DNA of 64,000 bases, from the IMG/VR virus record IMGVR_UViG_3300045051_000014; one strand, written 5' to 3'. The DNA comes from a virus. Its lineage: Duplodnaviria; Heunggongvirae; Uroviricota; Caudoviricetes. Positions 44,095 through 63,804 of this stretch are shown in pieces. The translations under genes and the position numbers were made by a program. Numbering within the stretch: the stretch's first letter is position 1; the number at the start of each line of letters is the position of its first letter. The notes beneath the pieces are model-generated. The model searched no databases, was not told the origin of the DNA, and saw only the letters and a list, made by a program, of their open reading frames with translations.

Positions 44095-44165
44095 AACACA
44101 GCAAACGTTATGCGTTTCAAAGGGAGCGGCTGCAAAGCAAACTGGCTTCCACCAATTCAGACAAT

Positions 44166-44241: not shown

Positions 44242-44247
44242 AACAAT

Positions 44248-44328: not shown

Positions 44329-44333
44329 ATTAC

Positions 44334-44407
44334 GTCCGATTAGCTTAAAAGTGAAGCACCGTGCTGATAACGCGGAGAAGTAGGAGCATTACCTACATTG
44401 GACACCA
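44334..44407 (+). tRNA. tRNA-Ile(GAT), T-loop AGCATTA
   Basis: acceptor gtccgat/attggac, D gctt-aaaagtg-aagc, anticodon ccgtg/cgcgg loop ctGATaa (canonical Ile loop). Confidence 0.6.
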
Positions 44408-44512
44408 ACTACATTCAGCGCACAAACTCTTGCCATTTAAACGGGCGAGTATGCAGAGTGCGGTCCTGCGTCAACAGGGCGAAGCGATTTTGACGAATCG
44501 TAGACTGCGTGC

Positions 44513-44587
44513 GCCGCCATAGTATAATGGTCATTACAAGGTCTTGGTAAGACTTGAATCACAGTTCGATTCTGTGTGGTGGCACCA
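44513..44587 (+). tRNA. tRNA-Thr(GGT)
   Basis: acceptor gccgcca/tggtggc, loop ttGGTaa, T-arm cacagTTCGATTctgtg. Confidence 0.75.
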
Positions 44588-44592
44588 ACAAT

Positions 44593-44678
44593 GCGGAAGT
44601 AGCCTAGCGGTTAGGCACTTGCTTGCCAAGCAAGAGTGCGAAAGCCAAACGCGAGTTCGAATCTCGTCTTCCGCTCCA
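44593..44678 (+). tRNA. tRNA with anticodon GCC (Gly) but 86 nt with ~16-nt variable region
   Basis: perfect acceptor gcggaag/cttccgc, class-II-like D-arm gcc-tagcggtta-ggc, anticodon cttgc/gcaag loop ttGCCaa, extra agtgcgaaagccaaac before T-arm. Confidence 0.5.
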
Positions 44679-44679
44679 A

Positions 44680-45279
44680 TTAGCGTGGATCGTACCTGTA
44701 ATCAGAATGATACATGTTGACGATCCCGCGTCTTAGCTCAGAAGTAAGTTCAAGGTTAGGTATGAAGTTCGGCTTTTCGTTTTCAACGGGAATGTCGATT
44801 GCCATGCCGCCGAAGATACCAATGAGTTTTCTGGCTTCCGATTCGAAGTCATGAAAGTTGAGAACGTTCATGTTAGGATGATCAAACCAATCGGACTGCG
44901 GCTTGAAGCCAATAATGTCGGTGCGTTGAATCCTCTCTAGCAGACGATCCGGATGATTCATCTTATCTCTTAGATGTTGCGGAAGAGCGTTGTATGATTC
45001 TTCATCCAACGGTTCCGGCATACGAATACCAGTGAATGATTCGGGAAACAGTTTGATCAGGACGGTTCGATACGTGCGCAGAAAGTTGTACGCGGATACG
45101 AAACGTTCTACAGGGTCACGCCAGAAAGCGTAACCACTTGAATCTAAATACGCAGTGCTTGGAGTCTCATGCAGACTTCCGACATTCCTGCCGTAAGGTT
45201 TCAATAAGTTTCGAATGGTAGTCGAACCAGTTTTCGGCACCAGATAGAATGCGTGCTTGTTGTCATGACTAATGATCAT
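44680..45279 (-). CDS. sulfotransferase-family protein (PAPS-binding PKTGSTT motif)
   Basis: N-terminal FYLVPKTGSTTIRNLL resembles sulfotransferase 5'-PSB loop; only sizeable minus-strand gene, embedded in tRNA array. Confidence 0.55.
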   Translation of the reverse strand: MIISHDNKHAFYLVPKTGSTTIRNLLKPYGRNVGSLHETPSTAYLDSSGYAFWRDPVERFVSAYNFLRTYRTVLIKLFPESFTGIRMPEPLDEESYNALPQHLRDKMNHPDRLLERIQRTDIIGFKPQSDWFDHPNMNVLNFHDFESEARKLIGIFGGMAIDIPVENEKPNFIPNLELTSELRRGIVNMYHSDYRYDPR

Positions 45280-45439
45280 GCACGTATTTAGGGGAAGATC
45301 ATGAACTTCGAAAGAAACAGAGCATATTACTGGCGGCAGGCGCGAGCATGTTTCAAAGCCGGTTTCAAGTTCCTTCGAAGAGCAATCTTCCTTCCAAAAA
45401 GATAATGTCTCTTAAGCTAATCTAGTGAAAGCGCAGGTC

Positions 45440-45590
45440 TGAAAAGCCTGATAGGTTGGAGCGTAACCAACAGGGGACACCAGTTTCGGGATGTTTACAG
45501 CAAACCAAATACCTCGCCAAATCTGAGGGGCTGTCCAATGGGGACTGTGCGCTAGGGTTCGAATCCCTGCCTACTAGCACAACCATCCCG
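45440..45590 (+). ncRNA. tRNA-like / Y RNA-like module (ACAGCAAACCAAAT + T-arm-like GGTTCGAATCCC, no CCA)
   Basis: motif at 45497-45510; hairpins cctc..gagg, gtcc-aatg-ggac; TTCGAAT T-loop at 45557-45571 without matching acceptor. Confidence 0.4.
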
Positions 45591-45775
45591 TCTAATTGAT
45601 TGTCGCGTCACTGAAATTGAACGTGCGGACATATCGCAGCACTGAGGACATATGTTATTCCCCGCGTGGGCGAGCTTGGAGTCTTCTGCCGACAATCAAC
45701 TTTATAGAGTCAACGGATGAAATGACCTCCCTTGTGGTGCGGCAATAGCCGTATAAAAAATCCGTCGAATTCAAT

Positions 45776-45852
45776 GCACCGGTCTTCTAATAGGATAGGA
45801 AAACAGGTTCTCAACCTGTGCAATGACGGTTCGAATCCGTTCCGGTGTACCA
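45776..45852 (+). tRNA. tRNA-Glu(CTC)
   Basis: acceptor gcaccgg/ccggtgt, anticodon acagg/cctgt loop ttCTCaa, T-loop TTCGAAT. Confidence 0.65.
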
Positions 45853-45859
45853 AACATAA

Positions 45860-45934
45860 CAGGATGTAAGTCAACAGCAGACGACCTCGCTTGGAACGAG
45901 GAGGCAGTAGGGGCAGCACCTACCATCCTGACCA
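45860..45934 (+). tRNA. tRNA-Pro(TGG) second copy, T-loop GGCAGCA
   Basis: perfect acceptor caggatg/catcctg, anticodon cctcg/cgagg loop ctTGGaa. Confidence 0.55.
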
Positions 45935-45986
45935 ATTCATACTACATAGTAGACCATATGGACTACTTTGTAGTCCAAAGATCAAT

Positions 45987-46063
45987 GGTAAGTGTAGCAT
46001 AGTGGCTAATGCCCAAGACTGTGAATCTTGAAGACGCGGGTTCGAATCCCGTCGCTTACCCCA
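45987..46063 (+). tRNA. tRNA-His(GTG) with encoded G-1
   Basis: extra 5' G pairing with C73, loop ctGTGaa, T-arm gcgggTTCGAATcccgt. Confidence 0.75.
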
Positions 46064-46083
46064 AACACAAATGGAGCGAAACC

Positions 46084-46269
46084 ATGGCTGCGAAGAACGA
46101 TGTAACAGGTGATAGTATCAAAACTAAGACTGGCAATCCTGATGCGTATGCAAAGGGTTGGGATCGAATCTTCGGCAGTAAACGAACAAAGGACCGTACA
46201 CCTTCCGGTGAGCTTGCTGAACCGGTGCGCCGCAGGGCTGCGAACAAAGTACGGGCTAAGAACAATTGA
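46084..46269 (+). CDS. small basic protein (61 aa) nested between tRNA genes
   Basis: ATG with GGAG RBS 7 nt upstream; MAAKNDVTGDSIKTKTGNPDAYAKGWDRIFG... Confidence 0.35.
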   Translation: MAAKNDVTGDSIKTKTGNPDAYAKGWDRIFGSKRTKDRTPSGELAEPVRRRAANKVRAKNN

Positions 46270-46350
46270 TGGGTTGACGGTGCCGGTAACTGTCCCTAGT
46301 CTTTGAAACTAGTGCATTGCGCGTAGGTTCGACTCCTACCCCATCAGCCA
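46267..46350 (+). tRNA. tRNA-Gln(TTG) with enlarged D-loop and 10-nt variable region
   Basis: perfect acceptor tgatggg/cccatca, anticodon ctagt/actag loop ctTTGaa, T-arm gtaggTTCGACTcctac. Confidence 0.5.
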
Positions 46351-46616
46351 ATTTGCCTCTAGAGCAAAAACAACGAGTCATGTTACGTTGTAAAATAAGA
46401 ACATGCAACCATGTGCTGAAAGCAGACGGCTAACGTGCTGTCTCTCTAGCACCCACCGTTGTAGGTGGGAGTGCGGAGTGGAGTAAGAGTGGTGGTAGTA
46501 ATTGATTCCGAGATAGTTCAATAGGCAGAACAACCTCACGCTAAGAGGGAGACAGGGTTCGAATCCCACCGGAATTAGTGGCGCGGCTTCCAAGAATACC
46601 AAACGCGCCCAACTTT

Positions 46617-46690
46617 TCTCCTCTCGTCTAACGGCAGGACGCAACGCTCTGAACGTTGCTATCGTGGTTCGAATCCATGGGGGAGAGCCA
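46617..46690 (+). tRNA. tRNA-Gln(CTG)
   Basis: acceptor tctcctc/ggggaga, D gtct-aacggca-ggac, anticodon caacg/cgttg loop ctCTGaa. Confidence 0.7.
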
Positions 46691-46699
46691 AATTTAAAT

Positions 46700-46787
46700 G
46701 GAAGGTTGTCCGAGAGGCTTATGGACCCTGTTTGCTAAACAGTGGGGCGTTAAAACCACACAGGTTCGAATCCTGTACCTTCCGCCA
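46700..46787 (+). tRNA. tRNA-Ser(GCT), class II
   Basis: perfect acceptor ggaaggt/accttcc, G73, loop ttGCTaa, long variable arm, T-arm acaggTTCGAATcctgt. Confidence 0.7.
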
Positions 46788-46795
46788 AAACAAAT

Positions 46796-46883
46796 GGAAG
46801 ATTGACCGAGAGGCTTATGGTTCCCGCTTGGAAAGCGGTGAGATGTAAAAGTCACGCAGGTTCGAATCCTGCATCTTCCGCCA
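46796..46883 (+). tRNA. tRNA-Ser(GGA), class II
   Basis: perfect acceptor ggaagat/atcttcc, G73, anticodon ccgc/gcgg loop ttGGAaa, long variable arm. Confidence 0.7.
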
Positions 46884-47001
46884 AATGCAGTATAGGAAAG
46901 TATCCGAATCCAAGAGAGCCTATACCTCGCTGACGGATTCAGCCGCGCTACGTGTTGAAATGCACGGTAAAGCCGACGCGGACAAAAGTAATCGGCACAT
47001 T

Positions 47002-47075
47002 CGTCCCTTAGTATAGAAGCAATACGTTGCCTTGACATGGCAGAAAAGATGGAGCGTTACCATCAGGGACGACCA
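47002..47075 (+). tRNA. tRNA-Val(GAC), T-loop AGCGTTA
   Basis: perfect acceptor cgtccct/agggacg, D gtat-agaagca-atac, anticodon ttgcc/ggcag loop ttGACat. Confidence 0.6.
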
Positions 47076-47080
47076 ATTAT

Positions 47081-47168
47081 GGAAGGTTGGCAGAGAGGCT
47101 AATTGCCGCTGTTTCGAAAGCAGATGGGTGTAAAAACCACACAGGTTCAAATCCTGTACCTTCCGCCA
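47081..47168 (+). tRNA. tRNA-Ser(CGA), class II
   Basis: paralogous to Ser(GCT) gene (same acceptor and T-arm), loop ttCGAaa. Confidence 0.65.
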
Positions 47169-47173
47169 GATAT

Positions 47174-47250
47174 GCGAGTGTGATGTAACTGGCAAACGTG
47201 TTCGGCTCAAACCCGAATTTCTGTGGGTTCGAATCCCACCACTCGCACCA
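47174..47250 (+). tRNA. tRNA-Leu(CAA), class-I length, A73
   Basis: perfect acceptor gcgagtg/cactcgc, anticodon ttcgg/ccgaa loop ctCAAac, 5-nt variable, T-arm gtgggTTCGAATcccac. Confidence 0.65.
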
Positions 47251-47255
47251 ACTAC

Positions 47256-47332
47256 GCGCCTATGACGGAACAGGCATACGTCTAACGTTGAGAACGTTAG
47301 TTTTGTGGGTTCGAATCCCACTAGGCGCACCA
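47256..47332 (+). tRNA. tRNA-Leu(GAG), class-I length, A73
   Basis: perfect acceptor gcgccta/taggcgc, anticodon taacg/cgtta loop ttGAGaa, same T-arm as Leu(CAA). Confidence 0.65.
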
Positions 47333-47624
47333 ATTTACTGAGTCGAGCTAACGCAGGCAACTGAGGAAGTTCGCGACTCACGCAGGAATCGTGTGGGAGC
47401 CGAAAGGCGTCTTACCACCGTGATATAGTGAGCAACACAAACAGAGCGTGGGAAATTCCTGCCTATACGTTCGGGTTGTGGCAAAGATGAATGTTAGCAT
47501 AGAACAGAATCGCGGCTACGGACTCAGTAATTCGAAATAGCTAACCCATACGTGTCAAAAGGATATGTCCGAAACAAGCGTAATTCGAATGAGGCTTGTT
47601 AGACGGTGGGTTGGCGGTACCTAT

Positions 47625-47701
47625 ACCCTTGTAGTTTCAACGGACAGAACACCCCGGTCCTAACGGGTCCAATGCAGGTTCGAATCCTGTCAAGGGTACC
47701 A
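47625..47701 (+). tRNA. tRNA-Arg(CCT)
   Basis: perfect acceptor acccttg/caagggt, loop gtCCTaa, T-loop TTCGAAT. Confidence 0.6.
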
Positions 47702-47709
47702 CACATTAC

Positions 47710-47784
47710 GCCGCCATCGTATAATGGCTATTACGGATGTTTCGTAAGCATCCTATCTCAGTTCGACTCTGAGTGGCGGCACCA
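47710..47784 (+). tRNA. tRNA-Thr(CGT)
   Basis: acceptor gccgcca/tggcggc, anticodon gatgt/gcatc loop ttCGTaa, T-loop TTCGACT. Confidence 0.75.
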
Positions 47785-48561: not shown

Positions 48562-49677
48562 ATGCTACGCTTCAAAGAACACCTGATTGAGAAAGAGATT
48601 GCGGAATACGCTTTCGTGTTTGAGGATTTTGTTGCCCTAGGCGAACAGTCCCTAGACGAAATGAAGCTGACCGATATCCCTGTCAAGGTAGAGGGTCCAA
48701 AGGTCAATCGTGACAAGACCCCACCTACGGGTGTTCCGAAGCCAGAGCAGAAGGGTGGCAACCACTGGCAGAAGCTCCGCAAGGGTGCTGCGTCTTATTT
48801 CTCTAAGTCTCCCGAAGAACAGAAGAAAGCGCAGGAACACGCCCACAAGGTTCTAGGTCACACAGCCCTCATGGGCGACGAGGCTTCCAACCCGAAGCTC
48901 GCTAAGAGTGGTAAGACGATGCCCGAGTTCCGTACTAAGGGACTCACGCTAGCACCGTCCACCCATTCTGGCATCGACGTATGCCCTAACGCATCGTCCG
49001 AGTGTAAGGCATCGTGCCTAGGCTCCGAAGCCGGTCGCGCACACATGGCAAAGGATGCGCGAGTCAAGCGTACCCACAAGTTGTTTGACCATCCAGAACA
49101 TTTCTATGCCAAGCTTGACTCAGAGATTTCCTCTGCGAAGAGCGCGGCACACAAGGCAGGGCAGAAGCTTGCAGTTCGCCTGAACGTTGCTTCCGACATT
49201 CCTCATGAGCATCTTGCTCGCGGTCTGTTCGACAAGCATAAGGATGTTCACTTCTACGACTACACTAAGATCACCGGAAGAGCGAACCACAAGAACAAGC
49301 CTGACAACTATCACCTGACGCTTTCTTCGACGGGTCTGAACCACAAGGAAAGCAACTGGTCGCATGTGCGCAAGCACCTAGACAATGGTGGTGTGGCAGC
49401 AATGGCATTCCACATCAATGCGAAGAGTCACGCAGGCAAGGCTACGGCACTGCCGACACACGTACACGATGAAGAGACAGGAAAGAAGTATAGAGTTATC
49501 GACGGCGACGAGCATGATCATCGTCACCTTGACAAAGCCTACCATGGTATCCCTGATCATGAGGGAGTCATTGCCGGTCTTAAGTTCAAGGGCGGCGAAG
49601 GCAACATGGAGAAGGCAGGCAACTTTGCAGTGAAGCATGAAGGCGGCATTGCGGTTGCTAAGAAGGGGCAGAACTAA
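48562..49677 (+). CDS. hypothetical His/Lys-rich protein
   Basis: 371 aa ORF. Confidence 0.6.
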   Translation: MLRFKEHLIEKEIAEYAFVFEDFVALGEQSLDEMKLTDIPVKVEGPKVNRDKTPPTGVPKPEQKGGNHWQKLRKGAASYFSKSPEEQKKAQEHAHKVLGHTALMGDEASNPKLAKSGKTMPEFRTKGLTLAPSTHSGIDVCPNASSECKASCLGSEAGRAHMAKDARVKRTHKLFDHPEHFYAKLDSEISSAKSAAHKAGQKLAVRLNVASDIPHEHLARGLFDKHKDVHFYDYTKITGRANHKNKPDNYHLTLSSTGLNHKESNWSHVRKHLDNGGVAAMAFHINAKSHAGKATALPTHVHDEETGKKYRVIDGDEHDHRHLDKAYHGIPDHEGVIAGLKFKGGEGNMEKAGNFAVKHEGGIAVAKKGQN

Positions 49678-49744: not shown

Positions 49745-50323
49745 GTGTGTTTTATGACTCCTAAGATTCTAATTGCAGACAGCGCAGGCAACCCTAAAGA
49801 TTGGGTTTCTCTTGACTACGCAACCCACTACCTCGCATCCGATAAGGTTGTGTGGCAGGCAGGTTCGATCATCAAGACCTACCGTGGCGGCTACAATGCT
49901 GCGACGGGCGAACGCTCGACTCTGGACATTCACTCCATCCTAGGTATTTCCGGTAAGCTGCTAGGCGACAAGTTCTTCACCAGAACTTCCGTCTACACCG
50001 ACCGTGAGATTCTCTACGCTCGCGACAGATACCTCTGCGCGTACTGTGGAGAAGAGTTCGATGCGTACAAGCTTACCATCGACCACGTAATGCCGCAGTC
50101 TCGCGGTGGACGTAACGTTTGGCAGAACTGTGTTACTGCGTGCAAGACATGCAACCACAAGAAAGCCGACCGCACGCCAGAAGAGGCGAAGATGAAGTTG
50201 CTGTATGTTCCATACGCTCCTAACATGTTCGAAAAGATGATTCTTAAGAACCGCAACATCCTTGCGGATCAGATGGACTTCCTCAAGGCTCGCGTCCCTA
50301 AGACCTCTAGAGTCTTCCTGTAA
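49745..50323 (+). CDS. HNH endonuclease
   Basis: CAYCG...TIDHVMPQSRGG...NCVTACKTCNHKK HNH/zinc motif. Confidence 0.7.
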   Translation: MCFMTPKILIADSAGNPKDWVSLDYATHYLASDKVVWQAGSIIKTYRGGYNAATGERSTLDIHSILGISGKLLGDKFFTRTSVYTDREILYARDRYLCAYCGEEFDAYKLTIDHVMPQSRGGRNVWQNCVTACKTCNHKKADRTPEEAKMKLLYVPYAPNMFEKMILKNRNILADQMDFLKARVPKTSRVFL

Positions 50324-50406: not shown

Positions 50407-50432
50407 CGTAAGTTGTTGATTTATAAGGGGTT
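50407..50432 (+). repeat. intergenic element CGTAAGTTGTTGATTTATAAGGGGTT
   Basis: consensus copy followed by TATAAT box and ORF 50474. Confidence 0.55.
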
Positions 50433-50473
50433 GAAACACTTGTGTTTTAGCCCCTTTTTGCTATAATGGTTGT

Positions 50474-50863
50474 ATGACTACTAAGCCTGTCTTTTGGATT
50501 CAGGGACTCCATATTACTGAGGGTCCGGAACTCCTGCGCAAGTGTTTCACCGAAACTCGTATCTGGCGCGGCAACGATCCGCGTCCGATTGTTCTCGGCG
50601 GCGACGGTTATTGGCAGTGGGGCGTTTCTGCGTACCGCAACAACCACAAGGGTTTTTGTTGGACTCAGGCTCTTCACGATGGTCTGGAAGGTTTCCATTC
50701 GACCATCTTTCACAGTGACCCCGACGCACGTTTTTGCGTGCATTCGGGTCATGCCGACTATGCTCACGTTGAGCGTATTTGGAATCTGGTCAACGAAAAT
50801 GTTGCAGTGCCAGATGATTTCCCCGACGAGTTCGGCGGCATCGGCAAGGCAGGAGTTTGCTAA
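50474..50863 (+). CDS. hypothetical protein
   Basis: 129 aa, TATAAT-like box upstream within repeated element. Confidence 0.5.
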   Translation: MTTKPVFWIQGLHITEGPELLRKCFTETRIWRGNDPRPIVLGGDGYWQWGVSAYRNNHKGFCWTQALHDGLEGFHSTIFHSDPDARFCVHSGHADYAHVERIWNLVNENVAVPDDFPDEFGGIGKAGVC

Positions 50864-50867
50864 GATT

Positions 50868-51317
50868 ATGGGAATTCTATATATTATCAGGGGTGTGTCT
50901 GGTTCGGGCAAGACGACTCTCGCGCAGAAGATGGCAATCGAAAAGGGTTGCCAGTATTTTGAAGCTGACATGTGGTTCGTGCGCGGCGACGGTGAATACA
51001 TTTTCGACGCTCGCGAACTGCCGCGAGCGCACCGGTGGTGTCAGGATCAGGTGCGCAATGAGATTGCGAACGGTCGGGATGTTATCGTGTCGAACACGTT
51101 CACCCGCGAATGGGAAATGCAGGAGTACATTCGCTGCGCTTCCCTTCACAACTATCACACGGTAGTCATTGAGTGCCGTGGACAGTATCCGAATGTACAT
51201 GGATTGACCGAAGAGGCAGTAGCGAAACAGGTAGCACGCTTCGAAAGCAATGACGAGATTCGCGCAAGGAATTCTCGTTATGACGATGGACACGTTACCT
51301 TTCTACTGAATGATTGA
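50868..51317 (+). CDS. P-loop polynucleotide kinase-like protein (Pnk kinase-domain-like)
   Basis: Walker A IIRGVSGSGKTTLA at N-terminus, ~150 aa; adjacent to RNA-ligase-like and phosphoesterase genes. Confidence 0.55.
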   Translation: MGILYIIRGVSGSGKTTLAQKMAIEKGCQYFEADMWFVRGDGEYIFDARELPRAHRWCQDQVRNEIANGRDVIVSNTFTREWEMQEYIRCASLHNYHTVVIECRGQYPNVHGLTEEAVAKQVARFESNDEIRARNSRYDDGHVTFLLND

Positions 51318-52203
51318 AATGCATGTGATAGACAGACAGTTGCGCGAGTTTGCTGAGTCCAATCCGGACTTAGTATCCGTTCGCGTTTCTCTTCGCTATC
51401 CGCGTCTGCGCGTAGTGAAGTACAAGCACAAGGTTTTCTACAAGTCTCTCTGGACTCCTGAGTTGTGCGAAATGCGCGGCTTAGTTGTCGATGAAGACTG
51501 GAACGTGATCGTGCGTCCGTTCCGCAAGATTTTCAACCGCTTCGAAAACGGCACCGACTTCCCATTGGATGCCGACGTTGCGGCTGCGCGTAAGGTCAAT
51601 GGCTTTATGGCAGGCTTGACGGTGGACGATGAATACGGAACGATTGTTTCGACAACGGGTTCGTTGGATTCGCCATTCGTTGCGATGGCTGAGAAGTATT
51701 TGCTGCCGTTGAAGGATCGCGGTCTGATCAACGGTGTGACCTATCTGTTCGAAATTGTGGACCCACAGGATCCGCATATCATCGAAGAGAAGGTCGGTGC
51801 GTACCTGATTGGTGCGCGAGCAGTCTGTTCGAAGATCACGCTCCTAGAGTGTGACTTGGACGAGATTGCAGCAGGAATGGGTGTCATGCGTCCCGAGTGG
51901 AAGCGTGCGCCGTTCGCTGAAATTGTCGCGGAGACTAAGGCTTGCAAGCATGAGGGTTTCGTGTGTTACGACACTTCGAACGGTCATGCGCTCAAGATCA
52001 AGTCTCCGTATTATCTAACTAAGAAGTTCTTTTCGCGGGTTCGACCAGAGAAGTTGACGGTGGATTGGCTACAGGCTAATCGCGGTAACTTTGATGAAGA
52101 GTTCTACGGATTGATCGACTATATCTCTGCAAGCCGAGACTTTTTCGTTGCTATGTCTCCGGAAGATCGGCGTGCATACATTGAGGATTATTTGTCACTA
52201 TGA
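51310..52203 (+). CDS. ATP-dependent RNA ligase-like nucleotidyltransferase (motif I KVNG)
   Basis: AAARKVNGFMAGL lysine-nucleotidylation motif variant; 297 aa. Confidence 0.45.
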   Translation: MIEMHVIDRQLREFAESNPDLVSVRVSLRYPRLRVVKYKHKVFYKSLWTPELCEMRGLVVDEDWNVIVRPFRKIFNRFENGTDFPLDADVAAARKVNGFMAGLTVDDEYGTIVSTTGSLDSPFVAMAEKYLLPLKDRGLINGVTYLFEIVDPQDPHIIEEKVGAYLIGARAVCSKITLLECDLDEIAAGMGVMRPEWKRAPFAEIVAETKACKHEGFVCYDTSNGHALKIKSPYYLTKKFFSRVRPEKLTVDWLQANRGNFDEEFYGLIDYISASRDFFVAMSPEDRRAYIEDYLSL

Positions 52204-52769
52204 CTGAACGTATTTGGTTTACGTCCGACACACATTTCGGACACAAGAACATTTTGAAGTTTTGCCCTGAGTCTCGACCGGTTAAGACCGTAGAAGAGCA
52301 TGATGCGCGATTGATTCGAAACTGGCAGGAGCAAGTCGCTCCGCAGGATCGCGTCTATCACTTGGGCGACTTTTTCTTCTGCAACGGCGACCGGGCTAAG
52401 AGAATTCTTGACCAGTTGCCGGGACAGATTCACTTCATTCACGGCAACCACGACAAGGTGATTTCGTCTAACCACGATATCCGCTCGCGGTTCGTATCCG
52501 TGTCTGACTACAAGGAACTGCGGATTGAGGAAATCAAGGTCTGCCTGTTCCACTTCCCTATCTACGAGTGGCATCACATCCACTACGGATCGTTCCACTT
52601 CTACGGTCACGTTCACGGTTCGGTACAAGTACCGGGTCGCGCAATGGACGTAGGTGTGGATACCCGTCCCGGTGGCGACATGAAGCTTTGGTCTTGGGAA
52701 GAGTTGAAGAGACTCATGCTCAAGCGTGAGATTCGTACCCACCACAACAACGTAAAGGTTGAAATGTAA
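52200..52769 (+). CDS. calcineurin-like metallophosphoesterase (candidate RNA 2',3'-phosphatase)
   Basis: WFTSDTHFGHKNI, YHLGDFF, IHGNHD motifs. Confidence 0.75.
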   Translation: MTERIWFTSDTHFGHKNILKFCPESRPVKTVEEHDARLIRNWQEQVAPQDRVYHLGDFFFCNGDRAKRILDQLPGQIHFIHGNHDKVISSNHDIRSRFVSVSDYKELRIEEIKVCLFHFPIYEWHHIHYGSFHFYGHVHGSVQVPGRAMDVGVDTRPGGDMKLWSWEELKRLMLKREIRTHHNNVKVEM

Positions 52770-53094
52770 TATGAGTCTTGATGTAAGTCTTGTTAAAGTG
52801 ATGCCAACCGAAATCTATTCGGACAACATCACCCATAATTTGAATAAGATGGCACAGGAAGCCGGATTGTATGACGCACTCTGGCGACCTGATGAAAACG
52901 GTCTTACGACTGCGGCTGATCTTATTCCATTTCTGGAAGAGGGATTGCGCAAGCTTTGTGCAGACCCCGCACACTATGAGCAATTCAATCCGGCAAACGG
53001 GTGGGGTAGCTACGTTGGTTTGAAGGTATTCGTCCGCGACTACCTAGAAGCCTGCCGTGCCAATCCGGATGCAAAAGTAGAAGTGAGTAGATAA
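52759..53094 (+). CDS. hypothetical protein
   Basis: 111 aa. Confidence 0.45.
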   Translation: MKCNMSLDVSLVKVMPTEIYSDNITHNLNKMAQEAGLYDALWRPDENGLTTAADLIPFLEEGLRKLCADPAHYEQFNPANGWGSYVGLKVFVRDYLEACRANPDAKVEVSR

Positions 53095-53095
53095 C

Positions 53096-53521
53096 ATGCG
53101 TAAAGAATTAGACGATGCATTGTGTGAAAAGTATCCCAAGATTTTCGAACAGAGACATTGGGATATGAGCAAGACCTGTATGTGTTGGGGATTCCCCGGT
53201 GACGGGTGGTACGACATTCTCGACAACCTTTGCGGTGCCATTCAGGACTATTGCGATAACGTGAAACGCTACGATGAAGAGACTAAGCTATTGGTTCCGG
53301 CTTGCAAGCAAGTTGTGGCAACACAAGTCAAAGAGAAGTTCGGTGAACTCCGTTTCTACTTCGAAGGTGGAAACGAGACTATTCATGGAATGATAACAAT
53401 GGCAACCTACATGAGCAAGCGCACCTGCGAAGAGTGTGGTAAGCCGGGAAAGATTCGTCCCGGTGGATGGGTTCGAACCCTCTGCGATAAGCACGCGAAG
53501 AGAAAGCATGTTCGTTCTTAA
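53096..53521 (+). CDS. hypothetical Cys-rich protein
   Basis: 141 aa, CEECGKPGK. Confidence 0.45.
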   Translation: MRKELDDALCEKYPKIFEQRHWDMSKTCMCWGFPGDGWYDILDNLCGAIQDYCDNVKRYDEETKLLVPACKQVVATQVKEKFGELRFYFEGGNETIHGMITMATYMSKRTCEECGKPGKIRPGGWVRTLCDKHAKRKHVRS

Positions 53522-53900
53522 TAAGAAAGACCTAGAGTACAGTTGGTTCTCCGGTACGGGTGCCGGTGGGCAGCACAGGAACAAGCACATGAATTGCTTG
53601 CGCCTCAAGCATGTCCCATCCGGCATTCAGACGACCGGACAGAATCATCGGGATCGAATCTCTAATGAGCGTGAAGCCATGGAGAAGTTGATCGCTCGCG
53701 TGCGCTCGTTCTATCATCCCGAAGTGCAGAAGGAACGCTTCCGCGCAAAGGAACAGGTTCGTTCTTATCGCGAGCCTGACAACATCGTGAAGGATCATGC
53801 ATCCGGCGAAGTGTTCTCTTACAAGGAAATCGTCTTAGATGCGGACCCCGAAGAATTAGAAAAAGCCATGGCAGCAAGGCGCAATGCGCTAAGTGCCTGA
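53508..53900 (+). CDS. peptidyl-tRNA hydrolase / ArfB-like class-I release-factor-domain protein (GGQ motif)
   Basis: SGTGAGGQHRNKHMN GGQ motif; ~130 aa like ArfB/YaeJ. Confidence 0.7.
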   Translation: MFVLNKKDLEYSWFSGTGAGGQHRNKHMNCLRLKHVPSGIQTTGQNHRDRISNEREAMEKLIARVRSFYHPEVQKERFRAKEQVRSYREPDNIVKDHASGEVFSYKEIVLDADPEELEKAMAARRNALSA

Positions 53901-53921
53901 TTGTTAAGCTAGATTACATGC

Positions 53922-53950
53922 TTGACTTTTCCATGAACATCGTGAGATAA
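53922..53950 (+). promoter_or_regulatory. sigma70-like promoter TTGACT-N17-GATAAT upstream of DNA ligase
   Basis: -35 53922-53927, -10 53945-53950. Confidence 0.5.
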
Positions 53951-53957
53951 TAGTAAT

Positions 53958-54848
53958 ATGAGTAAAACATTCAAACCGATTCTTGCCGGTAAGTTCGACG
54001 CAAGTAAACAGAAGTTTCCTGTACTCGCATCCGCAAAGCTTGACGGCGTGCGCTGCATCATCATCGACGGTGTTGCAATGTCGCGAAGCCTCAAGCCGAT
54101 TCCGAATGAATACGTTCAGAAACAGATCGGCAAGAAAGTCTACAATGGACTCGACGGCGAACTCATGGTCGGGTTTGTCGGCGGCAAGGATGTATACCGC
54201 AACACAGTCTCCGCAGTCATGTCCGAAGACGGCGAACCGAATTTCACCTTTTGGGTGTTCGACAAGGTTCCGCAGAATCCTGAGCGTGCAGACGGTTATT
54301 CAGATCGTCTAGACTCCATCAAGAAGTTCGACGGTGCGCCGCACATCAACGTGCTACCGCATACCCTGATCAAAGATATGGATGCGCTCGACAAGTTCGA
54401 AGCGAAGCAACTAGAGCGCGGCTTGGAAGGCGTGATTCTGCGTTCGCCGCATGGTCCTTACAAGTTCGGTAGATCGTCCACCAACGAAGGCACGCTACTG
54501 AAACTCAAGCGATTCGAAGACTCCGAAGCGACGATCATCGGCGTTGAGGAACTTCTGTCGAATCAGAACGATGCGAAGACCAACAAGCTTGGACACACTG
54601 AGCGTTCCTCACACAAAGAAAACATGGTGCCTATGGGTACGATGGGTGCGCTCAACGTTCGCGACCTCAAGACAAAGGTGGAATTCTCCATCGGCACCGG
54701 CTTCGATGCGGTCACAAGGGATACCTTCTGGAAGACCCGCAATACCGTCATCGGCAAGATCGTGAAATATAAGTATTTTGCAAGTGGTTCGAAGGACAAA
54801 CCGCGATTCCCGGTATTCCTTGGCTTCCGTGACGAGAGGGATATGTAA
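53958..54848 (+). CDS. ATP-dependent DNA ligase (small phage-type)
   Basis: motif I ASAKLDGVRCI (KxDGxR); 296 aa; promoter TTGACT-N17-GATAAT upstream. Confidence 0.7.
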   Translation: MSKTFKPILAGKFDASKQKFPVLASAKLDGVRCIIIDGVAMSRSLKPIPNEYVQKQIGKKVYNGLDGELMVGFVGGKDVYRNTVSAVMSEDGEPNFTFWVFDKVPQNPERADGYSDRLDSIKKFDGAPHINVLPHTLIKDMDALDKFEAKQLERGLEGVILRSPHGPYKFGRSSTNEGTLLKLKRFEDSEATIIGVEELLSNQNDAKTNKLGHTERSSHKENMVPMGTMGALNVRDLKTKVEFSIGTGFDAVTRDTFWKTRNTVIGKIVKYKYFASGSKDKPRFPVFLGFRDERDM

Positions 54849-54850
54849 TT

Positions 54851-55030
54851 ATGGACCCCGTAACAATCTTATTGTACATTGTGGCAATTCCGGTAGCACT
54901 AGGAATTGTCGCAGCAGTCCTATGGTTCATCTTTAAGTTATTCTGGATCATCGGTCTGATCGTCTTCAAGCTTGCGATTATCGCACTGGCAATCGCAGCC
55001 CTAGTTGGTCTAGGAATCCTGTTGACATGA
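54851..55030 (+). CDS. small membrane protein (59 aa)
   Basis: two TM helices. Confidence 0.3.
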   Translation: MDPVTILLYIVAIPVALGIVAAVLWFIFKLFWIIGLIVFKLAIIALAIAALVGLGILLT

Positions 55031-55476
55031 TCATCGAAATCCTAGCATGGTTCACCGTTGTTGGTCTTCCAATTCTAGGATTGGTGGCAATCTGGTTCCT
55101 TTGGCGAAAGCTTTTCCCAAAGACGGATGACGCACCCACACCACTCCACGATCTACGCTACGCACACACCGCGCCGCCGCCCGAATACGTGGAACCGACT
55201 GTCACCGTGACCACAACAAATGATACACCCGAATGGAATTCGATTGACGAGCAAAGCTTTATGAAGGAAGAGGAAGTAGACTGCCGTAAGATCGTAGAAC
55301 CGGGAACTCGCGTCTGGCGCGTCTATCGCAGCGAAGACCATAAGAACTGGATCGAATGCGAGCCTACACTTACGGAACGATCTGCGGTCAACTATGCGGA
55401 ATATGTCAAGAGCATGTATCCCGGCAATCTCGTACAAGTCACAGACCCTTGCGGGATCATTCTAATCCATGAATAA
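55027..55476 (+). CDS. hypothetical protein with N-terminal TM helix
   Basis: 149 aa. Confidence 0.5.
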   Translation: MIIEILAWFTVVGLPILGLVAIWFLWRKLFPKTDDAPTPLHDLRYAHTAPPPEYVEPTVTVTTTNDTPEWNSIDEQSFMKEEEVDCRKIVEPGTRVWRVYRSEDHKNWIECEPTLTERSAVNYAEYVKSMYPGNLVQVTDPCGIILIHE

Positions 55477-55942
55477 GGAACTCTGCAATCGCGTGCTTTC
55501 GCTTTGTGATTCGTGGACATGGAAGCGATACGATTTCCAGAGTCCATCGGGCATACCGTTCCACTATAGCGGCAGTGCTGTACGCAGAAACGATCCACTC
55601 TATAAGGAACTGTTGGACTATCTTCTACAGGTAGAACCAGAATTTGCGAACTACGATGTTTCCATATCCATCAACAAATATGAAGTTGGTGACTATATGG
55701 GTAAGCATCGGGATCGAATGCCAACACGACTGCGCACCTTTCTAGTCCAGTTGAGCGAACCTTCCTCTTATGAAGGTGGCGACTTGACGGTAGATGATAA
55801 GATCAGTTCAAGAGAACAAGGCGCGACCAACACATTTGATTCACAGGAAGTCTGGCACTCAGTAGGCAAAGTTCTAAGTGGAATTAGATACAGCATCGTC
55901 TTTTGGGGTTACAAGAAAGAGCTTGACAGTTCCACCGATTAG
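55469..55942 (+). CDS. 2OG-Fe(II) oxygenase, prolyl 4-hydroxylase-like (paralog of 34242-34802)
   Basis: HRDRMP (HxD) ... YEGGDLTV ... H. Confidence 0.65.
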   Translation: MNKELCNRVLSLCDSWTWKRYDFQSPSGIPFHYSGSAVRRNDPLYKELLDYLLQVEPEFANYDVSISINKYEVGDYMGKHRDRMPTRLRTFLVQLSEPSSYEGGDLTVDDKISSREQGATNTFDSQEVWHSVGKVLSGIRYSIVFWGYKKELDSSTD

Positions 55943-55951
55943 CTATATACT
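55923..55951 (+). promoter_or_regulatory. sigma70-like promoter TTGACA-N17-TATACT upstream of natV-nadV
   Basis: GCTTGACAGTTCCACCGATTAGCTATATACT; same GATTAG..TATACT architecture. Confidence 0.55.
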
Positions 55952-56001
55952 ATTAGGCAGAGGATAGACCTCTACCGTTTTTACTCTAAGGGAGCCTTAG
56001 A

Positions 56002-57063
56002 ATGACAAGCCAAACGCACATGTCCGTGTTCATCGGACGTTTTCAGCCGCCGCACAAGGCGCACATTGACACCATTCGGTACGCACTGAAATTCTCCGAC
56101 AAGGTGCTAATTCTAATCGGATCCGCATTCAAGCCATCCGACACTCGCAATCCGTTTTCTCATATCGAACGCAGTCACATGATCAAGACTTGCTTCGATG
56201 CTGACGTTCAAAAGCGTCTTATCTTCGACTATATCTCCGACCATCCATACAACGATCTTGCGTGGGTGAAGAATGTCCAGACTGCCATCGACAATGCTTA
56301 CTACAATAACTTCGGTTGGCAGGACAAGCAGGACATTACTCTGATTGGACACCACAAAGACGAGTCCTCTTACTACCTCGACCTGTTCCCGTCTTACAAG
56401 CAAGCCGAAATGGAAAACCTGTACGGTCTGGATTCCACGAACATTCGTGGACTCTGGTTCGCAGGCAAGGATGCGTGGAAGAACGGCAACATGAAACTGG
56501 TATCACACTCCGTTCCGCAGCCTGTCATGATTCATCTGAATGAAGTCATGAAGGAAGATCGCTACCAGACGCTAGTGAAGGAATACGAGTTTCTGCGCAC
56601 CTACAAGCTACAGTGGTCGCAGGCTCCGTATCCGCCAACCTTTGTCACCGCAGACGCAGTAGTGTCCTGCCTCGGTCACGTTCTACTGGTACAGCGCAAG
56701 GCTGCGCCGGGAGAGGGACTGTGGGCATTGCCGGGAGGCTTCCTCAATCAGTACGAAACGGTGCGTGAGTGCGCCGCTCGCGAACTAGAGGAAGAGACTA
56801 AGATCAAGGTGCCACCCGCACGGCTGCGCGGTTCGATTCGCACAGAGAAGCGATACGATCATCCCGGCAGAAGCCTGCGTGGACGCACGATCACCACCGC
56901 ATTCCACTTCGACCTCTTTGGCGAACGCTCGCTTCCGAAGGTCAGGGGTTCCGACGATGCTGCCGCAGCACGATGGTTCCCTCTCAACGAACTTGTTCGA
57001 CTACAGGACAAGATGTATGAAGATCACTACCATATCGTAACTGATCTTCTCGGCTTGGGTTGA
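56002..57063 (+). CDS. natV: bifunctional NMN adenylyltransferase / Nudix hydrolase (NadM-Nudix)
   Basis: FIGRFQPPHKAH (HxGH), Nudix box GGFLNQYETVRECAARELEEETKI. Confidence 0.85.
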   Translation: MTSQTHMSVFIGRFQPPHKAHIDTIRYALKFSDKVLILIGSAFKPSDTRNPFSHIERSHMIKTCFDADVQKRLIFDYISDHPYNDLAWVKNVQTAIDNAYYNNFGWQDKQDITLIGHHKDESSYYLDLFPSYKQAEMENLYGLDSTNIRGLWFAGKDAWKNGNMKLVSHSVPQPVMIHLNEVMKEDRYQTLVKEYEFLRTYKLQWSQAPYPPTFVTADAVVSCLGHVLLVQRKAAPGEGLWALPGGFLNQYETVRECAARELEEETKIKVPPARLRGSIRTEKRYDHPGRSLRGRTITTAFHFDLFGERSLPKVRGSDDAAAARWFPLNELVRLQDKMYEDHYHIVTDLLGLG

Positions 57064-57105
57064 AGATAGACTTCGACTCGTTTTCAAATGTTAAGGAGTT
57101 TAACA

Positions 57106-58475
57106 TGCGTACCAACTTACTACTAAACACAGACTCGTACAAGGCTTCCCACTGGCTCCAATACCCACCGGGAACAGAGTACGTCTATTCATACATCGAA
57201 TCTCGCGGCGGTCTTCATGACGCGACCGTGTTCTTCGGTCTACAGGCATTCATCAAGGAATACCTCACCGAATCCATCTGCCTCAAGGATATCTACGAAG
57301 CGAAGGAATTCTTTGAGGCACATGGCGAGCCGTTCCACTTCCACGGATGGAACTACATTCTGCGCAAGCACAATGGATATCTGCCGGTGCGTATCTCCGC
57401 GCTGCCAGAAGGAATGCGCGTGCCTGTCGGTACGCCGCTAGTCACCATCGTCAACACGGACCCTGAGTGCTTCTGGCTTACATCGTATCTGGAAACCGCA
57501 CTGCTTCGCGCAGTCTGGTATCCGACGACCGTTGCGACAATCTCACACTACATCAAGACGATCATCAAGCGCGAACTGGAAGACACTGGCGATGTTGCCG
57601 GTCTGCCGTTCAAGCTGCATGACTTCGGTGCGCGTGGCGTATCATCCAATGAATCTTCGATGCTAGGTGGCATGGCGCATCTGGTCAACTTCCAAGGCTC
57701 CGACACCGTAATGGGTATCGTCGGCGCGAAGCGTTGGTACAACGAGCCAATGGCAGGCTTCTCCATTCCGGCAGCAGAACACTCCACGATTACTACATGG
57801 GGTAAGACTCGCGATGGTGAGACTGCGGCATACGCCAACATGGTAGCCAAGTATGGTAAGCCGGGAACGATCTTCGCGGTTGTCTCCGACTCCTACGATA
57901 TCTACAAGGCGTGCGAAGAGATTTGGGGTGGAACGCTCAAGCAGCAAGTCATCGACTCCGGTGCGACTCTCGTAGTCCGTCCTGACTCTGGTGATCCGGT
58001 TGCAGTCACACTTCGCTGCATTCAGATCCTTGACGAGAAGTTCGGTCACACGGTCAACGCGAAGGGATTCAAGGTTCTCAATCACGTTCGACTGATTCAG
58101 GGTGACGGTGTGAACCCAAGTTCCATCGAAGCCATCCTGATGAACTTCAAGGCGCATGGCTACAGCGCAGACAACATTGCGTTCGGCATGGGCGGCGCGT
58201 TGCTACAGCACATGAACCGCGACACGCAGGAGTTCGCAATGAAGGCGAGCGCAATCCGAGTCAACGGCGAATGGCGCGATGTATCGAAGTCGCCAATCGG
58301 TCAGGCTTCGAAAAAGTCGAAGGGTGGACGGTTCACTGTAACATGGGACCGCGACGGTTGGCAGACGATGCCACTGGACGAGACTGTGGAGAATATGTTA
58401 AGTCCGGTCTTCGAAGACGGCAAGCTTTTGCGGGATACGTCTTTTGCACAGGTACGGTATAACAGCACCCTGTAA
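57106..58475 (+). CDS. nadV: nicotinamide phosphoribosyltransferase
   Basis: N-terminal NLLLNTDSYKASHW and overall NAMPT architecture, 456 aa. Confidence 0.85.
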
Positions 58476-62836: not shown

Positions 62837-63296
62837 GTGCGATAGATGCCATGAGCATCTACCTGCGAACAAGTTCTCATACATCAAGAAAGAGAATCCA
62901 TCTTTGGGACGGCGCACGATCTGTAAGGCATGTTCAAGCGTCCGCGCCGAGAAAGAACGCGAGCGGCGCAAGTCTAATTGGAAATACAAACCTGCTCTAG
63001 CAATGCTCAATAACTCTAAGCAACGCGCCAAAGCCGCAGGCATCTTGCATTCCATCACGATTGATGATATAATCATACCTGATGTGTGTCCTATACTTGG
63101 AATTAAACTTGAGGTTGGGGATCGCAAGAACCACAACAACGCACCTAGTATTGACCGAGTTGACAACACCAAAGGTTACACCAAAGATAACATCATGATT
63201 GTATCTTGCCGCGCTAACATGTTAAAGAAAGATGCAACCATTGATGAACTGATTCAAATGGGTAAATATTTTGAACATATTTTTCCTAGACCGTGA
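62772..63296 (+). CDS. HNH homing-type endonuclease
   Basis: SIDRVDNTKGYTKDNIMIVSCRANMLK HNH_3-like motif; N-terminal Cys/His zinc motif. Confidence 0.65.
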   Translation: MKMPQMAREGKNQYGNPKPKSECDRCHEHLPANKFSYIKKENPSLGRRTICKACSSVRAEKERERRKSNWKYKPALAMLNNSKQRAKAAGILHSITIDDIIIPDVCPILGIKLEVGDRKNHNNAPSIDRVDNTKGYTKDNIMIVSCRANMLKKDATIDELIQMGKYFEHIFPRP

Positions 63297-63804
63297 TCCA
63301 CAAGTCGCAGCACGCTACCACTGCGATAAGCATGTTGTGAAATTAATTCTGGAATCTGCGCAGTTGCTTTCGACTGCGCATCGGGTTCTGGACGGCGACT
63401 CTAAGGGAGTGTTGCCTGATGAAAGAAATGAAGTTCTCTATAGAGCTACCCACCGTAATCACCCGTCTGCTGTATGGGTTAGACGCGAACTTGATCACTA
63501 TCGTTGGGTTCATGATCTACTATATTTTCTTATTGGTGAGTTCCGTTATCGCTACGGCAAGCCACACGCCACAGAGCGTCTACAGCCCTATCTTCTAGAC
63601 GCGCCGCAAAATATTCCTACGGACGGTCCTTTCATCATGGAGGATCCGCCTCAGTGTATGCCGGATGACTGCAAGGGTCCAGACACCGTGGCTGCGTACC
63701 GTACCTATTACGCAAAGCATAAATACCACATTGCCAATTGGAAACGGCGCGGCAGTCCGGAGTGGTGGAATGAAACGGTTCAAGGAATTCATAGCGGAAA
63801 GTAG
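63271..63804 (+). CDS. hypothetical conserved protein
   Basis: 177 aa; FFLDRDPQVAARYHCDKHVVKLILESAQLLSTAH. Confidence 0.55.
   Translation: MNIFFLDRDPQVAARYHCDKHVVKLILESAQLLSTAHRVLDGDSKGVLPDERNEVLYRATHRNHPSAVWVRRELDHYRWVHDLLYFLIGEFRYRYGKPHATERLQPYLLDAPQNIPTDGPFIMEDPPQCMPDDCKGPDTVAAYRTYYAKHKYHIANWKRRGSPEWWNETVQGIHSGK

Follow-up and report, generated by a model that had tools for sequence, protein, structure and literature searches.

The 64,000-nt stretch of DNA analysed here (IMG/VR record IMGVR_UViG_3300045051_000014; hereafter the window) includes an auxiliary-gene region that lies downstream of a tRNA array and holds two modules: three small genes predicted to heal and seal broken RNA (50868-52769), and two genes predicted to rebuild NAD+ (56002-58475). 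Between them stand genes for a stand-alone GGQ protein, a DNA ligase and several further open reading frames (ORFs). The window has a GC content near 0.50, and all its plausible genes are on the + strand. Metagenomic contigs, the longest of 172,287 bp, encode proteins identical to its own, from which we conclude that the DNA comes from an uncultured large tailed phage, of which about 64 of some 172 kb are visible; the absences reported below hold for this window. Megablast of the region against 50,697 GenBank phage records returned zero matches and, at the lower stringency of blastn, NadV and NadM alone matched GenBank phages, at 64-67% identity; since nucleotide matches are restricted to these two genes, the phage cannot be placed by DNA.

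A first-pass annotation of this stretch, made from its letters alone, had proposed that consecutive genes encode a five-enzyme RNA-repair kit adjoining NAD+ salvage genes and a large tRNA array. Every ORF that it named is present from the start codon it gave, on the + strand and with intact catalytic motifs, and our gene models match those of the gene caller used for an independent metagenome collection (129, 149, 297, 189, 107, 141, 130, 296 and 59 aa, in order from position 50474). The word "consecutive" holds for the three genes of the first module, which are adjacent, but not beyond them: two ORFs precede the GGQ gene, and three separate the DNA ligase gene from that of NadM. What we observed directly is which genes are present, to which families and folds they are assigned, how far their motifs are conserved and how they are linked; the functions, substrates and countered defence systems discussed below are predictions from sequence and context.

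The central gene of the trio (51310-52203, +) encodes a 297-aa ATP-dependent ligase with a short helical C-terminal region. The protein matches PF09511 (RNA_lig_T4_1) with 30.6 bits, the cutoff being 28.3, and phrog_562, the PHROG family of T4 gp63, at 1.8e-49. Searched singly against the PDB it gave nothing useful; as a profile of six homologues it found T4 Rnl1 as the sole significant sequence match (9.4e-10), in an alignment that spans the nucleotidyltransferase domain and pairs K95 with K99, G98 with G102, E148 with E159, E215/G216 with E227/G228, and K229/K231 with K240/K242 of the T4 enzyme. The motif K95-V-N-G98, by which the first-pass annotation had recognised a nucleotidyltransferase, is intact, and K95, G98, F147-E148, E215, G216, K229 and K231 are invariant in 59 homologues. 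Of the Rnl1-specific residues of T4, R54, K75 and F77 align with R56, K73 and F75, but K119 aligns with a Thr. An AlphaFold2 (AF2) model made from the 59 homologues has a mean pLDDT of 93 and a pTM of 0.88, and the top three Foldseek matches of this model are all T4 Rnl1 entries (4e-12 to 4e-11, TM 0.64-0.66), followed by fungal Trl1 ligase domains and archaeal Rnl3. By sequence and by predicted fold, then, the product of this gene is an Rnl1-family RNA ligase.

Upstream of it, a 149-aa P-loop kinase (50868-51317, +) is a predicted RNA 5'-OH kinase of the Pnk clade. Its family matches are AAA_33 (1.6e-14), phrog_2071, annotated as 'ATPase' (5.6e-32), and phrog_505, annotated as 'polynucleotide kinase' (7e-8). 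A single-sequence search of the PDB retrieved only P-loops and nothing useful; a profile built from 24 family members ranked T4 Pnk first (2.4e-8), followed by PNKP (1.1e-7), Capnocytophaga Pnkp1 (3.2e-7), seryl-tRNA(Sec) kinase (PSTK) and CthPnk (2.1e-5), with gluconokinase (1.1e-4) and, weakly, nicotinamide riboside kinase (2.6e-3) at lower ranks. Six of the eight best distinct PDB proteins are polynucleotide or tRNA kinases. The P-loop G9-x-x-G12-x-G14-K15-T16 is present and D34, invariant in 24 homologues, aligns with D35, the catalytic general base of T4 Pnk; in the lid region, as we read the alignment, an invariant His (H111) takes the place of Arg. The protein is a kinase domain only, no DxDxT acylphosphatase domain being found in its 149 aa. 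With T4 Pnk, PNKP, Pnkp1 and CthPnk as its best solved structures, the protein is by profile comparison related to Pnk, as the first-pass annotation had supposed, and not a generic ATPase; its substrate contacts are predictions.

The third gene (52200-52769, +) encodes a 189-aa binuclear metallophosphoesterase (MPE), already recognised as calcineurin-type in the first reading and assigned here to phrog_547 ('phosphoesterase', 1.9e-56). Its active-site motifs are complete, all five (D10/H12, G56-D57, G82-N83-H84, H118 and G136-H137-x-H139) being invariant or nearly so in 21 homologues. At E<=1 the profile of this protein matched in the PDB Aquifex aq_1665 (1xm7, 1.2e-23), GpdQ (1.5e-3), a YfcE-type protein and two others. 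We predict that it heals RNA ends bearing a 2',3'-cyclic phosphate or a 3'-phosphate, a role suggested by its gene context and not by homology to a characterised RNA phosphatase.

The three genes are tightly packed: at their stop and start codons the kinase and ligase genes share 8 nt, and the ligase and MPE genes 4 nt (ATGA), which suggests translational coupling; the following ORF, at 52771, begins 1 nt past the MPE stop. We fetched from IMG/VR 80 loci with ligase homologues at 38-85% identity, which dereplication at 80% ligase identity reduced to 53, and counted linkage in the 42 dereplicated loci that have at least 3 kb of flank on both sides. Of these, 31 have the kinase within 3 kb of the ligase and 37 have the MPE; 27 have both, and 41 have one or other of the two. 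In one lineage (the L049-L067 group) kinase and ligase are fused in a single ORF of about 420 aa (L058, 604-1866), a Rosetta-stone link between the two genes. The order of the genes varies, from kinase-ligase-MPE in the window to MPE-ligase-x-kinase in rV5-like phages, which points to selection on the linkage rather than to shared descent of one arrangement. The set is also widespread. Upwards of 1,200 protein clusters belong to it, tblastn finds the ligase in 788 GenBank phage records, and the same trio is carried by an NCBI contig of 210 kb and by Klebsiella phage KB57 (Vequintavirinae), Pseudomonas phage phiK7A1 and the T5-like Vibrio phage JSF10, in which the ligase lies less than 1 kb from genes of the same families annotated as 'phosphoesterase' and 'ATPase/AAA'. 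Kinase, ligase and MPE are thus a conserved, co-inherited set. The first-pass annotation had thought it unusual that these activities are split over three small ORFs; on the contrary, separate ORFs are the norm in hundreds of phages, and the arrangement has been published, the neighbourhood of a T4-like tRNA ligase and a nucleotide kinase having been described by Iyer et al. (2021, 2022; PMC9503650 section 3.7.3, PMC7824862 section 3.4.9).

Module 2 consists of a bifunctional NMN (nicotinamide mononucleotide) adenylyltransferase/Nudix protein (NadM-Nudix, the Nmnat of NARP2; 56002-57063, +) and a nicotinamide phosphoribosyltransferase (NadV, the Nampt of NARP2; 57060-58475, +). Both exceed the cutoffs of their NCBIfam models, the first with 356.9 bits for NF003788 (cutoff 354) and with NUDIX (2.1e-22) and CTP_transf_like (9.5e-10) domains, the second with 641.9 bits for NF006629 (cutoff 405) and with NAMPT_N and NAPRTase domains. 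From alignments of homologues, translation of NadV probably starts at ATG 57105 instead of TTG 57060. The two adjacent genes, for which the names given in the first pass can be kept, match in sequence the enzyme pair of the NARP2 counter-defence pathway: Nampt would make NMN from nicotinamide and phosphoribosyl pyrophosphate (PRPP), and Nmnat-Nudix would convert NMN to NAD+, thereby rebuilding the NAD+ pool destroyed by NADase defence systems. The homologues in Vibrio phage KVP40 (NadV plus NatV Nmnat/Nudix; Osterman et al. 2024) belong to the same two families and are likewise adjacent and co-oriented, and in the 64-kb window, too, the pair comes without a Prs-like (Adps) gene; experiments have validated that they rebuild NAD+ and cancel Thoeris and DSR2 defence (10.1101/2024.02.11.579819). 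In comparison with KVP40, the activity of the window pair is a prediction, and its nucleotide matches to GenBank phages reach at most about 66-67%. Some 1.1% of phages carry NARP2, and 5.4% carry either NARP1 or NARP2 (10.1101/2024.02.11.579819).

Two further observations touch this pathway. Macro-domain phosphatases extend NARP1 (10.64898/2026.01.28.702374), and we considered the MPE of the window as the NARP1-associated phosphatase acting on ADPR-1''P, a derivative of ADP-ribose (ADPR); this was rejected, since that enzyme is a Macro-domain protein. At 4591-5865 the window encodes a 424-aa protein in which an N-terminal cytidylyltransferase (phrog_3041/395) is fused to a phrog_2071-type P-loop (4e-6); its architecture resembles NadR, and a NadR-like (NARP3) assignment found no support in Pfam, NCBIfam or the PDB.

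We interpret module 1 as an RNA end-healing and sealing cassette that stands beside a NARP2 module, a reading to which we assign a probability of about 0.68. In the proposed pathway the MPE would open, and then remove, the 3'-terminal phosphate; the Pnk-type kinase would phosphorylate the 5'-OH; and the Rnl1-type ligase would adenylylate itself at K95, pass the AMP to the 5'-phosphate and seal the break. This would be the logic of T4 Pnkp and Rnl1, with a calcineurin-type phosphoesterase in place of the HAD phosphatase, as in bacterial Pnkp, and with each repair activity carried by its own polypeptide. Published comparative genomics gives such cassettes the same reading (PMC7824862, PMC9503650), and a scheme drawn up for jumbo phages brings together tRNA arrays, Rnl1/Rnl2 ligases, polynucleotide kinases, phosphoesterases, peptidyl-tRNA hydrolases and NAD+ systems (PMC7824862 section 3.4.9).

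Comparison with the known systems shows both how close the trio is to them and where it departs. T4 Pnkp and Rnl1 (gp63), which counter the PrrC anticodon nuclease, are also phage-encoded, and they share with the window the family and fold of the ligase, the kinase domain to which the window kinase is closest and, as far as can be predicted, the heal-and-seal logic. The differences are the following: (i) the T4 phosphatase is a HAD (DxDxT) domain fused to the kinase, whereas the window has a separate binuclear MPE. (ii) T4 Rnl1 has 374 aa and the window ligase 77 residues fewer, so that after motif V only about 65 helical residues (233-297) follow. (iii) The pseT gene and gene 63 of T4 are separate, whereas the genes of the window trio are adjacent and overlap. 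(iv) K119 of T4 Rnl1 is a Thr in the window, and for R38 and R126 of T4 Pnk no counterparts are evident, as detailed below. Clostridium thermocellum Pnkp/Hen1 combines the same three chemistries and uses a calcineurin-type MPE as its 2',3'-phosphatase, and its kinase is matched by the window profile at 2e-5. However, bacterial Pnkp is one polypeptide, in the order kinase-phosphatase-ligase, and the window has three; the ligase domain of bacterial Pnkp is of a different family, the Rnl4 type; and no sequence link between its phosphatase and the window MPE was detected in the PDB profile search.

A published parallel is the neighbourhood of Escherichia phage V5 and Proteus phage Mydo, where a T4-like tRNA ligase and a nucleotide kinase are found with cREC, sirtuin and MazG and, in addition, a calcineurin-like phosphoesterase (PMC9503650 section 3.7.3). 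The ligase, kinase and phosphoesterase families are those of the window, the window ligase is 45% identical to those of Mydo and KB57, the trio is the same in KB57, and both there and in the window genes of the NAMPT family and for a DNA ligase lie nearby. In contrast, the order there is MPE-ligase-cREC-kinase, and the NAD+ genes are a NARP1-type Prs-like/Namat pair, where the window has NadV and NadM-Nudix of the NARP2 type.

Several observations weigh against the reading of module 1 as an RNA-repair cassette. In the ligase, the position of T4 Rnl1 K119 is occupied by Thr (T116), and the C-terminal tRNA-specificity domain, which is all-helical and has about 120 aa in T4, seems to be mostly gone and is truncated at best, the profile alignment ending at T4 Rnl1 residue 249. 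In the kinase, equivalents of T4 Pnk R38 and R126 are not evident in our alignments, with no conserved Arg at D+3, and the Aravind group names this family merely 'nucleotide kinase'. For the MPE, neither CthPnkp nor lambda phosphatase is among the PDB profile matches at E<=1, and aq_1665, its sole close solved relative, lacks a characterised function; the protein also matches PdeM, a phosphoesterase associated with DNA ligase (TIGR04123), weakly, at 1.5e-5 and with 24.5 bits where the cutoff is 150. Genes for phrog_547-type MPEs were moreover found within 10 kb of GGQ genes in 20 of 80 loci (the sample described below), and because 18 of these lack an Rnl1-type ligase, the roles of such MPEs may extend beyond the ligase cassette. 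Finally, cREC and Sir2, the companions of the cassette in rV5/Mydo-type phages, were not found in the 64-kb window, nor was MazG, unlike in the V5/Mydo neighbourhood. To our knowledge, neither the short Rnl1 subfamily nor the phrog_2071 kinases nor the phrog_547 MPEs have a biochemically characterised member, even though the set is among the most widespread phage RNA-repair configurations.

The tRNA array (41806-47784, +) that the first pass had described as large is real: ARAGORN finds 32 genes, and Rfam adds three that exceed its gathering score (44166-44238, 44334-44404 and 45407-45479), for an array of about 35 members. Two of the tRNAs are long, tRNA-Ile(UAU) with 95 nt (42572-42666) and tRNA-Gly(GCC) with 86 nt (44593-44678); the former is conserved in the relative whose ligase is 85% identical (L010, 838-932) and may hold an insert or a long arm. 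Between the array and the cassette lie genes for a GP88-family protein (48562-49677) and for an HNH endonuclease (49745-50323), which only some relatives have. Elsewhere, four representative loci have a tmRNA gene within 10 kb of the cassette (L018, 19190-19538; L026, 18410-18732; L049, 16165-16567; L085, 18660-19069), and suppressor tRNAs of the amber or ochre type, tRNA(CUA)/tRNA(UUA), occur at the same distance in L038, L030, L018, L026, L017, L014 and L015.

The company that the cassette keeps in the window is also found elsewhere. Of the 30 dereplicated loci whose flanks reach 8 kb or more, 15 have a NAMPT-family gene no farther than 10 kb from the cassette, 11 of them with a Prs-like partner (NARP1-type) and 4 with NadM (NARP2-type), and 21 have tRNA genes within the same distance. 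Both tRNA arrays and NAD+ genes recur in this way beside the cassette in unrelated phage lineages, and the position and orientation of the NAD+ genes relative to it differ between lineages. The layout of tRNA array, repair cassette and NAD+ module is therefore recurrent and lies well above the 5.4% quoted as background, in raw counts on which shared descent and the tendency of auxiliary genes to cluster still weigh. Such recurrent company suggests co-selection by hosts that combine tRNA-cleaving with NAD+-depleting defences. The coordinated action of the whole island, as the first-pass annotation proposed it, is something we infer from co-location only.

Two genes that had been counted as members of the same kit bear on this point. 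The first encodes a 130-aa stand-alone GGQ protein (53508-53900, +), equivalent to domain 3 of RF1/RF2 plus the C-terminal strands and helix. It matches PF00472 (RF-1) at 3.7e-17, with 62.8 bits and a cutoff of 35, and has the motif G20-G21-Q22. The first-pass label, ArfB- or peptidyl-tRNA-hydrolase-like, needs revision: the order of its NCBIfam matches is prfB (1.1e-15), prfA, prfH (3.7e-10) and then ArfB (1.2e-4, a marginal match with no single stretch passing), it aligns to positions 224-347 of the 353-position prfB model, and the AF2 model (pLDDT 86) has mtRF1a, RF2 and RF1 as its top Foldseek matches, over about 130 columns, PrfH and C12orf65 standing at ranks 48-49 and ArfB chains being absent from the top 50. 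Domain 1 and the codon-recognition domain 2 (PxT/SPF) are not present in the 130 aa. At the expected position of the switch loop the model has a linker of lower confidence, which the C-terminal strands and helix follow. In ArfB/ICT1 a linker joins the GGQ domain to a basic C-terminal helix, with which the empty mRNA channel is probed; the C-terminus of the window protein (EELEKAMAARRNALSA) is not basic, unlike that tail.

In 81 homologues G20, G21 and Q22 are invariant, and R85, Y87, N92, V94 and D96-G100 are invariant or nearly so. The family comprises 251 clusters in the protein collection, of about 103-200 aa and mostly of 124-148 aa, and 423 IMG/VR stretches, of which we examined the best 80 within a radius of 10 kb; each of these 80 is a stand-alone ORF, with a length of 111-158 aa. 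Members of the family retain domain 3 of RF1/RF2, the switch-loop region and the C-terminal strands and helix, but nothing that reads codons. Among GenBank phage records no homologue exceeds 36% identity. A conserved partner of the GGQ protein, as expected of a split release factor or a frameshift, was considered and rejected, since the ORFs that precede the GGQ genes of L007, L009 and the window show no relationship to one another; PHROG family 19918 does not extend over the ORF upstream of the GGQ gene either. In L009 the gene is accompanied by those for ribosomal protein S21, HSP20, ClpS and PTH2.

Three lineages, those of the window, of L014/L020 and of L007, have the gene within about 5 kb of the kinase/ligase/MPE trio. 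The gene and the ORF upstream of it (53096-53521, +; 141 aa, Cys/His-rich and with no family match) are, as one segment, absent from the closest relatives, at 85% and 69% ligase identity (related loci L004, L005 and L006). Across the best 80 GGQ loci the neighbours are heterogeneous, and an Rnl1-type ligase occurs within 10 kb in 2, for which reason we have downgraded the idea that the GGQ protein belongs to the repair kit. We read its gene as a mobile accessory and not as a fixed part of module 1. From its sequence, the protein is most likely a codon-independent peptidyl-tRNA hydrolase acting on stalled ribosomes. What it has in common with PrfH and ArfB is a GGQ peptidyl-hydrolase domain and no normal decoding of stop codons, and, as with PrfH-RtcB2, its gene shares an apparent operon with that of an RNA ligase. 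On the other hand, it is closer to RF2/RF1 than to PrfH or ArfB, it lacks the domain 2 of which PrfH retains a version, and the PrfH module uses RtcB where the window ligase is an ATP-dependent Rnl1 whose linkage to GGQ genes is not conserved. We put forward, as a tentative and rather doubtful idea, that the family consists of uncharacterised phage-borne minimal release factors that clear ribosomes jammed by cleaved tRNA or mRNA, with rescue coupled to tRNA repair. If this were true, a GGQ gene inside an RNA-repair operon would be the ATP-ligase analogue of PrfH-RtcB2; the stand-alone, RF-derived GGQ family is in that sense a candidate new ribosome-rescue factor.

The second gene (53958-54848, +) encodes a minimal ATP-dependent DNA ligase of 296 aa, with nucleotidyltransferase (NTase) and OB domains (phrog_114, 1.7e-64; PF01068, DNA_ligase_A_M; PF14743, OB_2). 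Its K27-L-D-G motif is intact, in agreement with the KxDG ligase of the first reading. A DNA ligase gene lies within 10 kb of the RNA-ligase cassette in 12 of the 30 loci and is absent in L006, and its product most likely serves DNA replication or repair, not being a fixed part of module 1. The single kit of five enzymes proposed at first thus dissolves into the trio and two genes of looser attachment, the GGQ gene being absent from the closest relatives and the DNA ligase gene from the relative at 69% identity.

Signals in the DNA fit three transcription units, 50474-53900, 53958-55942 and 56002-58475, all of them predicted from consensus matches on the + strand. A terminator-like hairpin with a 14-bp stem and a T run (50425-50456) would close the upstream unit; an extended -10-like motif, TGCTATAAT (50459-50467), ends 6 nt before ATG 50474; and a promoter-like TTGACT-18-GATAAT with TG (53922-53951) stands just before the DNA ligase gene. 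The extended -10-like motif within the latter, TGAGATAAT (53943-53951), likewise ends 6 nt before its ATG, at 53958, and if TGCTATAAT and TGAGATAAT function, the mRNAs for the ORFs at 50474 and 53958 would be leaderless or nearly so. Before NadM lies a sigma-70-like TTGACA-17-TATACT (55923-55951), which with 11 of 12 consensus positions is the best site in 11.5 kb; downstream of it come a small hairpin and the ribosome-binding site AAGGGAG. The promoter that the first-pass annotation gave to the NAD+ genes is such a consensus match, and the 15 promoter-like sites of the region are not above the shuffled expectation of 9.8 +/- 3.7; the genes themselves are there.

How far do these data favour a functional island over a mere neighbourhood? 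Large phages could gather dispensable auxiliary genes near a tRNA array, in which case the trio would be a unit and the island would have no coordinated function. The patchy occurrence of the GGQ segment and of the block from the DNA ligase to the 2OG oxygenase, the former absent from both closest relatives and the latter from L006, fits this view, as do the GGQ family without a conserved neighbour, the three apparently separate transcription units, and the order and orientation of the NAD+ genes, which vary from lineage to lineage. But half of the loci have a NAMPT-family gene, arranged in no fewer than five ways and with partners of either the NARP1 or the NARP2 type, against 5.4% genome-wide, and tRNA genes are near in 21 of 30; an association formed repeatedly and independently speaks for co-selection, but need not mean that a mechanism is shared. 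We regard location alone as a somewhat unlikely account of the island, and as the most probable of the alternatives to our own reading.

In another view, kinase and MPE heal DNA ends, or ends of both kinds, and act with the nearby DNA ligase to repair nicks with 3'-phosphate and 5'-OH termini, such as host nucleases might leave. The kinase has its best relatives in T4 Pnk and mammalian PNKP, which act on DNA too, a DNA ligase accompanies 12 of 30 loci, and the phosphoesterase PdeM, the weak match of the MPE, belongs to the DNA-damage response. That match is far below its cutoff, however, the DNA ligase is missing in most loci as well as in L006, and the partner common to both genes, with overlaps and fusions, is the Rnl1-type ligase (of 42 loci, 37 with the MPE and 31 with the kinase), so that we hold healing of DNA to be improbable. 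A little more improbable still is a role of kinase and MPE in NAD+ or nucleotide metabolism or in the destruction of signals, as a nicotinamide riboside (NR) or nucleotide kinase and a phosphodiesterase of ADPR derivatives or cyclic nucleotides: the NAD+ genes close by in half of the loci, the NadR-resembling fusion at 4591-5865, the weak NR kinase match, the MPEs found without RNA ligase and the Macro-domain phosphatases that extend NARP1 could all be cited for it, but NR kinase trails the polynucleotide kinases by five orders of magnitude, one lineage has the kinase and the RNA ligase in a single fused protein, kinase and MPE track the ligase more closely than the NAD+ genes, and the known NARP-associated phosphatase is a Macro domain and not an MPE.

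With an RNA-repair cassette beside a NARP2 module as the preferred reading, the window adds a divergent example of a known and published phage module, in a lineage without a close GenBank relative; its value lies in annotation, and no current view is overturned by it.

The remaining ORFs of the region, all on the + strand, are of more local interest. Directly upstream of the kinase, and in the same apparent unit, a lineage-specific, conserved ORF of 129 aa (50474-50863) has copies of 65-70% identity at the same position in L004/L005/L006; it has no Pfam, PHROG or NCBIfam match, and its identification as a cREC domain was rejected (hhalign probability 0.3). The ORF that follows the MPE (52771-53094; 107 aa, phrog_4019) is present in L004/L005 and absent in L006. 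Downstream of the DNA ligase come a hydrophobic protein of 59 aa (54851-55030), a protein of 149 aa (55027-55476) and a 157-aa 2OG-Fe(II) oxygenase (55469-55942), and these three ORFs are kept in L004/L005 only.

Two genes farther away deserve mention. At 32743-34167 the window encodes a 474-aa protein of the ROT/TROVE-vWA type, with DUF2828 and DUF7788 and a match to phrog_850 ('RNA-binding protein'); proteins of this type have been linked to RNA repair by Iyer et al., and no Rfam match to a Y-RNA, the partner of TROVE-like proteins, was obtained anywhere in the window. Near the end of the window, at 63271-63804, lies the gene for a 177-aa protein that matches no family and whose homologues, at 46% identity, adjoin an RNA ligase in 12 other viral loci.

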